Assembly: GCA_035708305.1 (NCBI GenBank)
Contig: DASSSU010000037.1
Location: 1 to 52,379, forward strand
Length of the DNA: 52,379 nt
Direction: 5' to 3'
From: Minisyncoccota bacterium
Lineage (GTDB): Bacteria; Patescibacteriota; Minisyncoccia; Phycocordibacterales; DASSSU01
A program made the position numbers and the translations under genes. Numbering within the stretch: position 1 is the stretch's first letter; every line of letters begins with the position of its first letter. The notes under the pieces are model-generated. The model was not told the origin of the DNA, made no database searches, and was given only the letters and a program-made list of their open reading frames with translations. Shown one piece after another: positions 38,284 through 43,303 of the stretch.

Positions 38284-38892
38284 ATGGCTCGATTATTTCT
38301 CATCCGACACGGAAAGTCCGAATGGAACAAGCTCGGGAAGTGGACGGGGTGGACGGATGTCTCGCTTGATGAAGACGGCATCAAAGAAGCGGAAAGAGCG
38401 GGGCAGCTGCTTTGCAATGAAGACGTGCACAAGGTCTACACGTCGAAACTCAAAAGAACGCACGAAACGTTTGAGCATTTGAAGAATGGGGCAAACAAGG
38501 AATTCCCTGAATCAGTGCCGTGCGAGGAATTGAATGAAAGAAATTATGGAATTCACACGGGGAAAAACAAGTGGGAAGTGAAAGAGGAGGTCGGAGAGGA
38601 AGCGTTCAATCAACTCAGAAGGGGATGGAACGTGGAAGTGCCGGAAGGAGAAACGCTCAAGGACGTGCATGCTCGGGTCGTGCCGTTTTACGAATCGAAT
38701 ATTAAAAAAGATCTTGCAGAAGGCAAAAATGTCTTAGTGGTCGCGCACGGCAATACTCTTCGAGCGCTCGTGAAGCACTTGGAAGACTTGGATGAAGCGG
38801 CGGTATGCGAAGTGGAAATCGGCACCGGTGAAATCCATTGCTACGAAACGGATGAAAATGGGCAGATTGTTTCCAAGGAGGTGAGGAAGTGA
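38284..38892 (+). CDS. gpmA: 2,3-bisphosphoglycerate-dependent phosphoglycerate mutase
   Basis: RHGKSEWN, LNERNYG and VAHGNTLRAL motifs; follows eno. Confidence 0.9.
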   Translation: MARLFLIRHGKSEWNKLGKWTGWTDVSLDEDGIKEAERAGQLLCNEDVHKVYTSKLKRTHETFEHLKNGANKEFPESVPCEELNERNYGIHTGKNKWEVKEEVGEEAFNQLRRGWNVEVPEGETLKDVHARVVPFYESNIKKDLAEGKNVLVVAHGNTLRALVKHLEDLDEAAVCEVEIGTGEIHCYETDENGQIVSKEVRK

Positions 38893-38916
38893 TTGTGGTA
38901 TCATGAAGGTATCTTT

Positions 38917-39855
38917 ATGACACAAGAAGAAAAAAAATTTGGTGAGGTCATGATTTATCGCGATGGTGATAAACCGCGACTTGAAGTCAAACTTGAACAA
39001 GGAACGGTGTGGCTGACGCAATCACAGATGGTGGAGCTTTTTGAAAGTAGCAAGGCAAACGTGAGCGAGCATATCAAGAATATTTACGAAGAAGGCGAAC
39101 TCAGGGAAAACACAGTTGTTCGGAAATTCCGAACAACTGCCCAAGATGGAAAGACCTACAATGTTGCTCACTATAATCTGGATATGATCATATCGCTGGG
39201 GTATCGAATAAAATCTCATACTGCGACTCAGTTTCGTATGTGGGCGACGGGCGTGCTGCGTGAGTACACTCTCCAGGGTGTGGCAGTGAATCAAAAACGA
39301 CTCGACCAGCTGGGAAAGTACCTCGATATTGTTTCGCGTTCGGAAATTGCGGAAGTCTCGGGTGTGGGTGAGATTGTGAAAGAATACATCGGTGCGCTTC
39401 ATCTGCTTGAGGAATACGACGACAACAGGCTGAGCGAGCCGGAAGGGAGGAAAGAAAGTTGGAAACTAACCTACGAGGAAGCGCGGACTTTTCTTGAGAA
39501 AATAAAAAAGCAAGAAGACTTTGGCGAGAATTTTGCAAATGAACGAAGTGAGCATTTCGGAGGTGTCGTCGCCGGTTTGTATCAAACATTTGGTGGGAAG
39601 GAACTCTACAAAAGTGTGGAGGAAAAAGCGGCGAATCTTCTGTATCAGGTGGTGAAAGACCATCCATTTGTGGATGGCAACAAACGTTCCGCAGCGGCAC
39701 TCTTTATTTTTTTCCTCTCCAAAAACGGCATCCGCTCGACAATCAACAGTAACGCACTTGCGGCAACTATCCTCATGGTCGCGCTTTCCGATCCATCTGA
39801 AAAAGATCAGATGATTCTTTTGGTGCGCAATTTTCTTGATAGCGGGAGAAAGTAG
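38917..39855 (+). CDS. RhuM-like N-terminal domain fused to a Fic/Doc domain
   Basis: TVWLTQ.QM.ELF, YNLDMIISLGYR..S..ATQFR.WAT and Fic motif HPFVDGNKR. Confidence 0.9.
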   Translation: MTQEEKKFGEVMIYRDGDKPRLEVKLEQGTVWLTQSQMVELFESSKANVSEHIKNIYEEGELRENTVVRKFRTTAQDGKTYNVAHYNLDMIISLGYRIKSHTATQFRMWATGVLREYTLQGVAVNQKRLDQLGKYLDIVSRSEIAEVSGVGEIVKEYIGALHLLEEYDDNRLSEPEGRKESWKLTYEEARTFLEKIKKQEDFGENFANERSEHFGGVVAGLYQTFGGKELYKSVEEKAANLLYQVVKDHPFVDGNKRSAAALFIFFLSKNGIRSTINSNALAATILMVALSDPSEKDQMILLVRNFLDSGRK

Positions 39856-39927
39856 CTTTTTACTTTTTAAAAGTAAAAATATTCCACGAAATTGATCGGG
39901 TTTATTAAGAAAGACCAAAAAACAACT

Positions 39928-40349
39928 ATGACCTTGGGAGTACGAGCAATAATAAAAAGAAAAAATTCGCTCATAATGGTGGAACACACGGAGAAAGAGC
40001 ATGGTGTTTTTTTCTTTTTCCAGGTGGTGGAATAGAAGAACACGAAAGTATTTTTATGGCGGCTGAACGCGAAGTCTTGGAGGAAACAGGATTGGCTGTG
40101 AAAGCGGAAAAAATCCTTTACATTCGTGAAGTAAAATATAAGAAAAAATATGGATTAGAGTTTTATGTGTTGTGCAAATATGTTTCAGGCACGCCAAGGC
40201 TTGGAAAAGATCCTGAACTTGGGGAAAATGATCAAATACTGACAAGGGTGGAAGAGATTGATATATCAAAACTTGATACTGTAAAGTGGAGACCGGAAGA
40301 GCTTCAAGGAGTGCTTATCAAAGAAACCGCCAACCTCGAAGAAATTTGA
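39928..40349 (+). pseudogene. NUDIX hydrolase split by a -1 frameshift in a T run
   Basis: N-part MTLGVRAIIK...GVFF from ATG 39928 stops at TAG 40033-40035; the -1 frame continues FPGGGIEEHESIFMAAEREVLEETG (Nudix box) to TGA 40349. Confidence 0.8.
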
Positions 40350-40537: not shown

Positions 40538-41284
40538 TTAGTTGAGGTTCTCTCTAAAAAACGGAAGGATGTGTTTTTTTCGTAATTCGGGACCGCTCAT
40601 TTTATGCCCCTTTTTGGGGAGAATATGAAAAGAATAAGGTTTTCTGAGTCTCGTGAGCTCTTCGGCGAGTTCACGCGAAAGAAAAGCCGGGACGTTTTCA
40701 TCGTCTTCTCCGTGTAGAATCAGCACCGGACAAGCAAGCGTTTTCATGTCAAAGATCGGCGAACGATCTCTCATTGCTTCCTCTGAAAGTCCCGTTTCAT
40801 CCTCAATCTGTTTTTTTATCATCGGGTGTTTTTTCTCCCACTGATAATTTTTTTGAAGATCATATGCTCCAGATTGAAAAACAGCAGCCTTCCACAGTTT
40901 TGGGTAATGAACAGCGAGCAAGGCCGCAACGCTTGCCCCACGAGAAACTCCATGGACGGCTATTTTTTTCTGGTTAAGGTTCTTTTTTTGGATCACTTCC
41001 TGAACAACATCAGCAATTCCTGAAATGGTTTTTGGACCATAGTAGTCACGCGGACCATTTGAGTAACCAAAACCGCGTTGAGATGGTAGGATGATGTTAT
41101 ATCCGAAATTGGTAAGCACTCGCGCAGGGTAAATCATATCCCACGCGCCGAATGTGTTATACCCATGAATATAGACAATGGTTGGTGAAATTTCCGGCGA
41201 ACTTTCTGATGGAAAAAAGAGTGCTTCAAATTTTTCTCCTTTATGAGGACGCAAAAACTGTTCAAAAGAAATGATATTTTGCAT
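40538..41284 (-). CDS. Alpha/beta-hydrolase (S9 peptidase catalytic-domain-like)
   Basis: IHG, GVSRGA nucleophile elbow, LHGEDDENVP acid and GH motif; no beta-propeller. Confidence 0.85.
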   Translation of the reverse strand: MQNIISFEQFLRPHKGEKFEALFFPSESSPEISPTIVYIHGYNTFGAWDMIYPARVLTNFGYNIILPSQRGFGYSNGPRDYYGPKTISGIADVVQEVIQKKNLNQKKIAVHGVSRGASVAALLAVHYPKLWKAAVFQSGAYDLQKNYQWEKKHPMIKKQIEDETGLSEEAMRDRSPIFDMKTLACPVLILHGEDDENVPAFLSRELAEELTRLRKPYSFHILPKKGHKMSGPELRKKHILPFFRENLN

Positions 41285-41378
41285 GAGGTTTATGAGGTTT
41301 ATAATAAAAAAGAGGAGACGATTTACGCCTCCTCGAAATTTGAAAGATCTTCTTCTCAGTTATTTTAGGTGCAGTATT

Positions 41379-41915
41379 TTACTGTGGATCACTACAACCC
41401 GGTCCGCAACCGCAGGAATCTCCTGGGCTACAATCACCCAAAACAATATACCCAATTTTTTCAATGCCTGGTCCGAGTACCGGTTTACCTTTCTCGTTTA
41501 AATAATACCAGTTCTCACCCAGGACACCCTCTCCAAACAGGTTAGTAGCAACTTGAAGGGTGTATTTGGGTGCGTTTGGATCAGAAGGCTGATCACTTGT
41601 CGCCGGTTTGTGGTAAATAAAATGAGCAAAGTGTTTTATGCAGAAATCTTCATATTCTTTCATGAAGAGTCCAAATTCATGCCATCCAATGTCTATCGTG
41701 TCGGGAGGAGTCCACTGTCCAGGAATTGTCCCACACATGTACAGAAAACGTTTGGTATCCTGAAATACGCTACAGGCTTGTTTGTAGGACATGCCATGTT
41801 TCTTTTGAAGACGCTCGACAACGTGCCGGTTATCGTAGTTCATAACCTTCTCAAGCAGTTCAGGTGATTTACTAGCGTGAACGTTAGACGTGCGCTTTAG
41901 TATTGAATTTGTCAT
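41379..41915 (-). CDS. Glycine-rich-domain-containing-protein-like fold with a Cys-rich C-terminal tail
   Basis: KRFL..C....TPP..ID.GWH.F......Y..FC...F..FI.H.P pattern; tail DCSPGDSCGCGPGCSDPQ; GAGGT Shine-Dalgarno. Confidence 0.65.
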   Translation of the reverse strand: MTNSILKRTSNVHASKSPELLEKVMNYDNRHVVERLQKKHGMSYKQACSVFQDTKRFLYMCGTIPGQWTPPDTIDIGWHEFGLFMKEYEDFCIKHFAHFIYHKPATSDQPSDPNAPKYTLQVATNLFGEGVLGENWYYLNEKGKPVLGPGIEKIGYIVLGDCSPGDSCGCGPGCSDPQ

Positions 41916-42100
41916 CTTTACTTACCTCTGTGTTGTCCAAGAAAAGAACCGGAATGCTCAGAACCATGAAAAAGTACAACATTCCATTGCGAATATAACA
42001 TGCTTAAATATTTTACGCAACAAGCATTGACAAATATTAAATTCCAATTAATGTAGAGTTGGTATTCAAAATTTTTTGTTCTTTGAAAAGGAGTTGGGAA

Positions 42101-43303
42101 ATGAAAATACTCATGATAGTGAAATATCCTCCAATTCAGGGTGGGGTAAGTACTGAGTCATATTGGACCGCTCAAACTTTTGCAGAAATGGGGCATGAAG
42201 TTCACGTTCTTACAAATGCAGATGAAATAGAAGAACAATATCGAATCAAAATTCCGCCACAAGATATGCATCTATTAGCAGGGTACAAAATAAAAGGAAA
42301 AATTTTTCTTCATAAAACAGAAAAAGATAGTAATCATGTCTTTATACCACAAAATAATCCGAGTGTTTCAAAAATAGTCGGTACCGGGCTTAAAGTTATT
42401 AAAGAATTTAATCCGGCATTCATCTGGAGCTATTACTTGGAACCATATGGAGTATCGGCACTTTTCCTGTCGCTTTTGACTGGGGTGCCTTATGTTATAA
42501 AACATGCGGGAAGTGATATTGGGAGACTTATGCCGACAGCGCAGCTTATGCCGATCTACAAAGAGGTATTTCAACGAGCCTTATTCGTAATAACTCATTC
42601 TGTTCACTTTGACCGCTTTCGTCTTTTGGGAGTAAAAGTGACCAATTTTTCTGAAAGTATTTCTAATCGGTTCAGAGGAGATTTATTCTTTCCTGAGCCA
42701 CCTCAAGAAAAAAAGATGGTTACCATTGGTGTATATGGGAAAACGGGACATTCCAAGGGAACATATGAGATTCTAAAAGCTATTGGATTGCTTCGTTCGC
42801 AAGGTGTCCCTTGTGTATTGAAAGCTTGCTGGGATAAAAAGAATGTAGACATTATCTGTAGATACGCAGAAACTCTTTCCCTTGGAGAAGATGTTTTTCA
42901 GTGGATAGATTTCATGCCTCATTGGAGAATGCCTGACTTCATTAAATCGTGTGATATGATTTTGTTTTTGGAAAATAACTTCCGTATACGATTCCATACA
43001 CCTGGAATTCCAATCGAAGTCCTTGCTTGCGGGCGCCCAATTATTACGACATCTGAAATTGCTGACAAGAAATTTTTAGCAACTTTTCTAAAACCGAAGG
43101 AAAATGCATTCTTAATTTCTAAAGAGAAGGTCGATTCAGAAACAATTGCAGAAGCGATCCATACGGTAATAAACCATGTATCGGGTACTGACTTCTGGAG
43201 GACACCATGGGTGAATTCCGGTTTACTTTCATTTAAGGCTAGGCTTAAAACTGAAGAGTTCTTAAACGTAATTCAAGATCGAATAAATTTCTCTAAAGCC
43301 TGA
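42101..43303 (+). CDS. GT-B fold glycosyltransferase (GT4-like)
   Basis: KYPP..GG, GHEVHVLT, HAGSD and EVLACGRPII motifs; AGGAG Shine-Dalgarno at 42089-42093 supports ATG 42101. Confidence 0.85.
   Translation: MKILMIVKYPPIQGGVSTESYWTAQTFAEMGHEVHVLTNADEIEEQYRIKIPPQDMHLLAGYKIKGKIFLHKTEKDSNHVFIPQNNPSVSKIVGTGLKVIKEFNPAFIWSYYLEPYGVSALFLSLLTGVPYVIKHAGSDIGRLMPTAQLMPIYKEVFQRALFVITHSVHFDRFRLLGVKVTNFSESISNRFRGDLFFPEPPQEKKMVTIGVYGKTGHSKGTYEILKAIGLLRSQGVPCVLKACWDKKNVDIICRYAETLSLGEDVFQWIDFMPHWRMPDFIKSCDMILFLENNFRIRFHTPGIPIEVLACGRPIITTSEIADKKFLATFLKPKENAFLISKEKVDSETIAEAIHTVINHVSGTDFWRTPWVNSGLLSFKARLKTEEFLNVIQDRINFSKA

Follow-up and report, generated by a model that had tools for sequence, protein, structure and literature searches.

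In the glycocins, among them sublancin (SunS), glycocin F (GccA) and thurandacin (ThuS), a ribosomal peptide is encoded beside a dedicated glycosyltransferase (GT). The precursors are short and have double-glycine leaders, the exporters are of ABC/C39 type, and the known enzymes belong to family GT2 with the GT-A fold. The NHLP and Nif11 families are long-leader precursors of RiPPs (peptides made ribosomally and modified post-translationally), in which a conserved leader is found with varied enzyme classes. Here we analyse 52 379 nucleotides of DNA from a Minisyncoccota bacterium (contig DASSSU010000037.1; this whole stretch is termed the window), in which three adjacent genes at 40538-43303 encode an S9-type serine hydrolase, a protein of 178 amino acids (aa) and a GT of family GT4. 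We put at about 0.5 the probability that the trio is a single horizontally acquired, RiPP-like module that modifies a protein tail, such that the helical domain of the 178-aa protein docks, the GT4 enzyme glycosylates the cysteine-rich tail and the hydrolase processes it. The literature that we searched holds no description of the family to which the 178-aa protein belongs (PF27765, UCP032817), of the GT fusion described below, or of this module.

The three open reading frames (ORFs) given in a preliminary description of this DNA were recovered at the same positions. The elements of the locus are as follows.

40538..41284, minus strand: gene for an S9-type alpha/beta serine hydrolase of 248 aa, comprising the catalytic domain only; candidate processing enzyme.
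41312..41334, minus strand: terminator-like hairpin, GAGGAGGCG-UAAAU-CGUCUCCUC then UUUUUUAUUA, between the gene for the 178-aa protein and that for the hydrolase.
41379..41915, minus strand: gene for the 178-aa PF27765 (UCP032817-like) protein, a helical domain with a Cys-rich tail; candidate precursor or substrate.
41394..41432, minus strand: four-cysteine motif C162-SPGDS-C168-G-C170-GPG-C174, within the disordered tail (residues 151-178).
41466..41864, minus strand: helical domain of the 178-aa protein, six helices, approximately residues 18-150.
41916..42100, no strand: divergent intergenic region of 185 bp (GC content 0.32) between the genes for the 178-aa protein and the GT, holding both Shine-Dalgarno sites.
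42101..43303, plus strand: gene for the GT4 (GT-B) glycosyltransferase, 400 aa, of a distinct clade; an alternative start at 42059 would give 414 aa.

Like a glycocin locus, the window module sets a peptide next to a GT, and S-linked glycosylation of cysteine would be its likely chemistry. The likeness would be one of function only, however. The enzyme is a GT4 of GT-B fold in place of the GT2 enzymes SunS and GccA, and in place of a short leader and an exporter there is a folded 'leader' of around 130 residues, and an exporter is not conserved. In its protein-sized N-terminal part, which pairs with unrelated classes of enzyme and with variable Cys-rich C-terminal cores, PF27765 resembles NHLP and Nif11. 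Yet it is unrelated to these in sequence, its fold has no solved counterpart, and it has neither a Gly-Gly cleavage motif nor a linked transporter; moreover an invariant Asp/His/His/Tyr set suggests that the domain does more than passive recognition. Measured against RiPP loci in general, the trio has a linked modifying enzyme and a linked peptidase-type gene, but no RiPP recognition element (RRE) and, among the genes flanking it, no exporter. The PF27765 protein has the expected conserved domain and variable Cys-rich tail, but its 'leader' is folded and carries invariant polar residues.

How widely do these genes travel together? A scan of genomes seeded with the PF27765 family gave 203 relatives in 80 loci from many phyla, for which ORFs were called and the neighbours clustered, and a scan of metagenomes seeded with a profile of the GT gave 309 relatives in 80 loci (individual loci are given L numbers). 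In the family-seeded scan an orthologue of the GT (E = 1e-42 to 1e-115) lies less than 1.5 kb from the family gene in Patescibacteria, in a Woesearchaeota metagenome-assembled genome (MAG) and in a Pseudomonadota MAG, and the taxonomic spread of the module is patchy. In the GT-seeded scan the family gene is found in 17 of 21 loci with a short GT (390-454 aa). Pooling the short-GT loci, 28/32 contain a PF27765 gene, with gene order and strand shuffled between loci, and in three of the four lacking it the contig visibly ends beside the GT. Thus the GT and the tailed protein, which the preliminary description had linked in the window, are found together elsewhere, and the lack of such co-occurrence, which that description had named as grounds for refutation, is not seen. 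In L001 the GT4, PF27765 and S9 genes occur together by the gene calls of the database, the GT being 44% identical over its full length to that of the window. In L083 and L084 the order is GT4, family gene (tail GPCDSCGCSPCDPS), a 104-aa gene, S9 and His_Phos_1, and in L085 the family gene is followed by the GT4.

The type of tail tracks the partner enzyme, so that the variability of the Cys tails anticipated in the preliminary description is borne out. Four classes of partner can be told apart in the family-seeded set, and each goes with a tail type of its own. A GT4 neighbour is present in eight loci of the family-seeded set, including the window, and their tails have the form C-x2-5-C-G-C-x2-3-C. 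A protein of around 363 aa is encoded immediately downstream of the family gene in 22 loci, where the tails end in a single CG[AS]C, and a small TehB-like S-adenosylmethionine (SAM) methyltransferase lies downstream in eight, of which five have tails of the type C..C.(A/G)STNCQ..C while L039, L043 and L068 have no Cys tail. Over 85 genome loci, Fisher tests that take no account of shared ancestry give p = 2e-7 for GT against the C-x2-5-C-G-C motif (7/10 versus 1/75, the single exception being on a 2-kb contig), p = 3e-9 for the ~363-aa protein against a terminal CG[AS]C (16/25 versus 2/60) and p = 0.011 for the methyltransferase against STNC-type tails. In three loci of Chryseobacterium, Epilithonimonas and Kaistella (L046, L054 and L067) a Cys-less family gene overlaps the gene for an S9-type hydrolase of ~304 aa by 4 nt, which suggests a partnership between domain and enzyme that has no need of a Cys tail.

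The ~363-aa proteins (L018-L082; e.g. L031, 10382-11506) form a family of more than 220 clusters in their own right. They match nothing in Pfam or NCBIfam, and an AlphaFold2 model with a mean predicted local distance difference test (pLDDT) score of 86 has no fold match in the PDB.

The remaining slots of the short-GT loci are filled largely by enzymes of peptide-modifying type. An S9-like hydrolase is found in 12-14 of the 32 loci, and in 10-11 its place is taken by a small HExxH protein (150-205 aa, with an invariant IHEL.HN). In the Woesearchaeota locus a Peptidase_C39_2 protein (4e-10) is encoded between the family gene and the GT, and L006 has an additional M16 peptidase. An MvdD-type ATP-grasp enzyme (PF21068, 6e-16) is added in 4/32 loci, a JmjC_2 protein (5e-20) in 3/32, and methyltransferases in some. 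Radical SAM and HExxH enzymes had both been named in the preliminary description as companions to look for; the HExxH proteins are there, and radical SAM enzymes were found in none of the loci examined. S9 orthologues stand beside the family gene or the GT in L003, L005, L008, L083, L092, L093, L095, L103, L104, L115 and L148.

Saccharibacteria-type loci (L003, 1590-1871; L005, 10615-10893; L083, 6603-6917) have, alongside the module, a further small and conserved protein (92-116 aa) that bears the motifs GWP(F/Y)E.MYDE and YRLNEGP. This protein has no match in Pfam and is absent from the window.

The second line of evidence comes from the relatives of the GT. Besides the short forms there are 41 long-form relatives (L096-L167) of 586-809 aa, 31-38% identical to the window GT, which have in common with it the motifs KYPPIQGG and HAGSD and the atypical E-x14-E. 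A PF27765 gene lies near none of these (0/41). Their C-terminal extension is a PqqD-type RRE, as judged from sequence comparison: that of L100 scores 24.3 bits against the Pfam PqqD model (cut-off 23.4), and a profile of 23 long-form C-termini finds the PqqD structures 5sxy (2e-8), 5vrd (2e-7) and 3g2b (4.5e-4). The neighbours are consistent with such an assignment. MbnB_TglH_ChrH enzymes (MNIO, PF05114) are encoded in 21 loci, the one scanned matching at 1e-77; a partner of ~281 aa is present in 13, Asn-synthase-like proteins in five and methyltransferases in four. Small Cys-repeat peptides (C-x2-C) lie beside long-form GTs, such as ...SSCIVCFVCFVCVVC... in L102 (5628-5876), and a representative GT4-PqqD fusion locus is L128 (4255-8031). 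With an RRE and MNIO enzymes as their context, the clade of the window GT is thus otherwise embedded in recognizable RiPP clusters. The window and the MNIO clusters have in common a GT4 of the same clade and Cys-rich neighbouring products. They differ in that the window has no MNIO gene, no partner and no RRE, and its short GT is paired instead with the PF27765 protein.

The GT itself scores 32.1 bits against Glycos_transf_1 (PF00534; cut-off 26.4) and has a Glyco_trans_4 domain. The clade is marked by KYPPIQGG, HAGSD, GK..SKG and an E-x14-E that replaces the EX7E motif. In an alignment of eight orthologues (A4) KxPPIQGG, HAGxD and GK....KG (G213, K214, K219 and G220) are invariant, as are E291-x14-E306 and, between the glutamates, F294, H299 and P304. 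The segment FLENNFRIRFHTPGIPIEVLACG, which the preliminary description had singled out as atypical for a catalytic region, is therefore real and is conserved among orthologues; a four-residue insertion is required to align it with the EX7E region of BshA. The closest solved relatives by profile are the bacillithiol enzyme BshA (5d00, 5e-12) and then the mycothiol enzyme MshA, and the GT-B fold and GK..KG donor motif are common to these (5d00; 2jjm, 3mbo, 6n1x, 6d9t; 3c4q) and the window GT. However, the similarity is weak, the EX7E is altered and the GT matches neither the BshA nor the MshA equivalog of NCBIfam. The window GT has no PqqD match; the short forms stop after the GT-B fold.

The 178-aa protein was assigned to PF27765 (UCP032817-like) by precomputed annotation of the window protein (P0001) and all its close relatives; Pfam and NCBIfam scans that lacked PF27765 returned nothing. 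The gene call of the database begins at M25, giving 154 aa. We prefer the longer ORF because homologues align from residues 9-20 and GAGGT precedes the ATG at 41915. An AlphaFold2 model based on an 89-sequence alignment has a pLDDT of 86 overall, with values of 91-98 over approximately residues 20-150, where there are six helices, and of ~51-58 in residues 151-178. Thus the protein would comprise a folded, all-helical domain of ~130 residues and a disordered tail, in agreement with the domain-plus-tail architecture of the preliminary description, whose tail, LGDCSPGDSCGCGPGCSDPQ, is exact; the chain terminates in CSPGDSCGCGPGC. A Foldseek search of the confident model against the PDB gave nothing below E = 2, so that function cannot be read from the fold, and a sequence search of the PDB gave noise only. 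In the alignment of the protein (A1) P70, D75, Y88, H102, P104 and W136 are invariant, W78, H79, C92 and N135 are nearly so, and within the tail conservation reaches 90% or more in the columns of C168 and C174.

The protein had earlier been called GRDP-like, a label that the Pfam GRDP-like model (PF07173, DUF1399) does not support. The model misses the window protein and eight further members, six of them of actinobacterial type, and touches one of the 89 members of the alignment, at E = 0.1. Some actinobacterial PF27765 members carry the NCBI label 'glycine-rich domain-containing protein'. Like PF27765, the plant GRDP (DUF1399) proteins have a conserved domain followed by a C-terminal low-complexity tail, but no link between the two was found with the Pfam model.

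PF27765 is a large family. An exhaustive phmmer search (E <= 1e-3) gave 1945 representative clusters, counted at 50% identity (~1900), that range from Patescibacteria and Woesearchaeota to Streptomyces and Bacteroidota. Almost all members have 130-200 aa, the common domain ending near a 'FG.LS.NW' motif and being followed by a tail of 15-70 residues rich in Cys, Gly, Ser and Asn. In 151 family representatives the final 30 residues are 10.6% cysteine, compared with 2.2% elsewhere, and 111 have at least three cysteines in that segment; the Cys tail exceeds what would be found by chance. No cleavage motif is conserved in the family.

Some members depart from the simple arrangement. The 341-aa protein P0003 is a tandem fusion with the order domain-tail-domain-tail, and in the metagenome loci L145 and L149 two family genes flank the GT. 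In Streptomyces antibioticus (L087, 7001-8696) a PF27765 gene with the tail GHCEAGCCCNT is followed by genes for a methyltransferase and a GNAT acetyltransferase, the three being located within an integrative element that has resolvase, TrwB-like, Replic_Relax and integrase genes.

The hydrolase matches Peptidase_S9 (PF00326) at 2.7e-24 over the catalytic alpha/beta domain only, in keeping with the S9-like assignment made earlier. Among solved structures it is closest to acylaminoacyl peptidases of archaea and bacteria (3e-14), and S114, D195 and H227 fall exactly on S445, D524 and H556 of the Aeropyrum enzyme (1ve6), the catalytic Ser/Asp/His triad of that enzyme. With these residues in place the hydrolase is a candidate peptidase of the module, on the grounds of sequence. 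The 248-aa chain has no beta-propeller, the match spanning only residues 344-570 of the solved relative. The S9 catalytic domain with Ser/Asp/His is common to the S9 peptidases of RiPP pathways, both of prolyl-oligopeptidase type and the lasso isopeptidase Atxe2. In contrast to these, the window enzyme is without the propeller and is short, and its match to the Atxe2 model is partial and weak (3.4e-8), at 32.7 bits far below the equivalog cut-off of 400.

The base composition of the block sets it apart. That it is AT-richer than its surroundings had been noticed by eye and is confirmed: 40538-43303 has a GC content of 0.397 where the window as a whole has 0.471, and of sliding windows of the same size only 2.6% fall below the block. 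Compared with the 38 other ORFs, the hydrolase, 178-aa and GT genes have GC z-scores of -3.0, -2.2 and -5.1, and z-scores in the same direction for GC at third codon positions (GC3) of -2.6, -2.1 and -3.9. This points to horizontal acquisition. For each of the three genes the closest relatives come from MAGs of Patescibacteria (Saccharibacteria, Paceibacterota and Wolfebacteria).

At least two of the genes have Shine-Dalgarno sites, as previously stated. GAGGT lies 8 nt upstream of the ATG at 41915 (acctc on the plus strand, 41924-41928), and AAGGAG at 42088-42093 lies 7 nt upstream of the ATG at 42101; the hydrolase gene has no evident site. Given the AAGGAG and the fact that all orthologues start there, the GT most likely begins MKILMIV and not at the TTG at 42059. 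There is no good sigma-70-type match inside 41916-42100, except one that overlaps the start of the GT. The hairpin at 41312-41334, in the 94-bp gap, has a 9-bp stem and a T-run (-17.9 kcal/mol, z = -2.56), and with a terminator-like element in this position simple co-transcription of the 178-aa gene with that of the hydrolase, as had been proposed, is not evident. A leaky terminator 3' of the family gene was considered as a trait of the family and dropped, since such elements follow 9/22 family genes and 40/149 control genes (p = 0.21).

We can now set out how the module might work. The helical domain would serve as a docking handle for the partner enzyme, in the role that a linear leader and an RRE play in the sister systems. 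The short-form GT4, having no RRE, would then glycosylate the tail. The acceptor would most likely be cysteine, because the cysteines, together with the Gly of the CGC, are the only residues of the tail that are conserved across GT-linked members; several of these have N, H, Q or D in place of the serine of the 'DSC'. The donor may be UDP-hexose or UDP-N-acetylhexosamine, a guess by analogy with BshA and MshA. In a third step the S9-type hydrolase would cut or trim the modified tail, the small HExxH, C39 or M16 protein substituting for it in other loci. Finally, the glycosylated thiol-rich peptide may act intracellularly, perhaps in metal or redox chemistry, or exit by an unlinked route, since no exporter is conserved. 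That the trio is a candidate peptide-modification system, as the preliminary description proposed, is supported by the co-occurrence, the tails, the HExxH proteins and the deviant GC and GC3, so that the computational checks which that description put forward came out in its favour, and further by the RRE-fused sister GTs and the ATP-grasp and JmjC partners, with glycosylation and cleavage as its putative steps.

A number of observations weigh against this scheme, beside the neglect of ancestry in the covariation tests. The hydrolase is without the propeller that gives S9 peptidases their specificity for peptides, and could be an esterase or a deacetylase. An ABC-type exporter lies within 3 kb in only one of the 32 short-GT loci, unlike most secreted RiPPs. 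Four of the 28 GT-linked family proteins have no Cys-rich tail (five loci: L017, L085 and L141/L158/L167, the tails of L141 and L158/L167 being near-identical and that of L085 having three Cys without the full motif), so that the link of GT and domain is not strictly dependent on the motif. Within the GT-linked subgroup the four-Cys motif is well conserved, as would be expected of a metal site. The Asp, two His and Tyr of the domain are kept even in tail-less members, which would suit an active or metal site better than a passive leader. Lastly, the ~363-aa partner of the largest subfamily bears an invariant C-terminal (CSS)n-CGG tail of its own (S-S-C-S-S-C..C-G-G).

Several of these features would be accounted for if the PF27765 protein were itself the stable, mature product, its domain binding and regulating or activating the neighbouring enzyme and its Cys tail acting not as a substrate but as a metal-binding or redox-sensing arm, in the manner of a metallothionein or zinc clasp. 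Tail-less members paired with a GT or hydrolase, sometimes with the 4-nt overlap of genes, retain D75, H79, Y88 and H102. The conserved four-Cys motif of the GT-linked group fits this explanation, the tail of the ~363-aa partner suggests a metal or thiol chemistry common to the partners, and no conserved exporter would be needed. There is also a precedent for an enzyme enhanced by binding, in that the plant protein GhGRDP1, which has DUF1399 domains, is reported to bind and enhance a UDP-rhamnose synthase (PMC13001069), although homology to plant GRDP is unsupported by the Pfam model. But such an adaptor leaves unexplained why unrelated families of peptidase are swapped among the loci, why MvdD-type ATP-grasp and JmjC enzymes join them, and why GTs of this clade carry a fused RRE in MNIO RiPP clusters. 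We therefore regard it as unlikely, while giving it more weight than any of the other alternatives.

The kinship of the GT with BshA and MshA raises the prospect of a small-molecule pathway, in which the GT4 and the hydrolase make a glycoside, either akin to a low-molecular-weight thiol or a glycolipid head group, with the tailed protein as carrier, scaffold or cysteine donor. The hydrolase could then be the deacetylase or esterase, a His_Phos_1 phosphatase-type gene adjoins the module in L083 and L084 and lies 1.6 kb away in the window, and here too the lack of a conserved exporter would be natural. However, the GT fails to match either NCBIfam equivalog; in the 32 loci the conserved neighbours include neither an LmbE-type deacetylase nor a Cys ligase, the window not having been searched specifically for them. 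The hydrolase slot is filled elsewhere by proteins of peptidase types (C39, M16 and HExxH), and the RRE fusion of the sister clade points to peptide substrates. A pathway of this kind seems improbable to us.

A more speculative variant, on which we would place slightly lower odds still, makes the domain autocatalytic. The invariant Asp/His/His/Tyr would form a metal site that acts on the protein's own Cys tail, like the BURP-domain cyclases of plants, and the GT4 and hydrolase would finish and release a glycosylated thiol-rich peptide that serves bacteria and archaea with small genomes as a ribosomal low-molecular-weight thiol or metal chelator. Were this so, PF27765 would mark a superfamily of self-contained systems with at least four classes of enzyme partner.

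Least credible of all is that the genes are cargo of a mobile element and serve some unrelated role, for instance as a defence or toxin-antitoxin-like pair, or are merely neighbours travelling together on an island. In favour of this, the block is of low GC and has a RhuM-Fic/DOC gene and a frameshifted Nudix gene beside it, the S. antibioticus family gene with its methyltransferase and GNAT partners is inside an integrative element, and the module has a patchy taxonomic distribution. Against it, the defence models of PADLOC 2.0 matched none of the three window proteins (0/3), the accessory genes are of peptide-modifying types, and linkage across phyla and two domains of life in shuffled order is hard to explain without selection for co-function.

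If the tail is indeed modified as we propose, PF27765 would be a large unrecognized class of ribosomal precursors with a folded domain as 'leader', and the distinct GT4 clade would be peptide glycosyltransferases, which either have an RRE, in MNIO clusters, or lack it and accompany a PF27765 protein. This would offer new entry points for mining genomes for RiPPs, bring GT-B enzymes into the toolbox for peptide glycosylation, and place chemistry like that of natural products in lineages that are generally thought to have very little. The module is compact, with three genes and no cofactor-heavy enzymes.

The window module is the minimal form of the system. The window contains a single PF27765 family gene and no MNIO, HExxH, ATP-grasp, JmjC, M16, C39 or TehB-like gene, and a tblastn search of the whole window with an MNIO enzyme and the partner of that enzyme gave nothing at E < 0.01. 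No exporter or immunity gene is seen among the genes flanking the trio. RNA runs holding the stretch were sought and none was found. Near-unchanged copies of it are present in contigs of several soil metagenome runs; those of four soil runs, compared for variation in the tail, are identical save for one base difference.

To the left the block is flanked by genes for enolase, a His_Phos_1 protein, a RhuM-Fic/DOC protein and the frameshifted Nudix gene, and to the right by that for serine hydroxymethyltransferase on the opposite strand. The RhuM-Fic/DOC protein (320 aa; 38893-39855, plus strand) has a RhuM-family N-terminus and a Fic/DOC C-terminus of death-on-curing type. Its gene, of a type typical of mobile elements, begins directly after the His_Phos_1 stop codon and borders the low-GC block. 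The Nudix hydrolase gene (39892-40349, plus strand) is interrupted by a frameshift of one base within a T-run near 40006-40022, and is either a pseudogene or the result of a homopolymer error in assembly; a shift of frame restores a perfect Nudix box, FPGGGIEEHESIFMAAEREVLEETGL. The His_Phos_1 gene, of phosphoglycerate-mutase type, is at 38284-38892, with the Fic/DOC and broken Nudix genes between it and the hydrolase gene. In L083 (7818-8606) and L084 a His_Phos_1 gene directly adjoins that of the S9 hydrolase, and the arrangement in the window may be leftover synteny or reflect a functional link.

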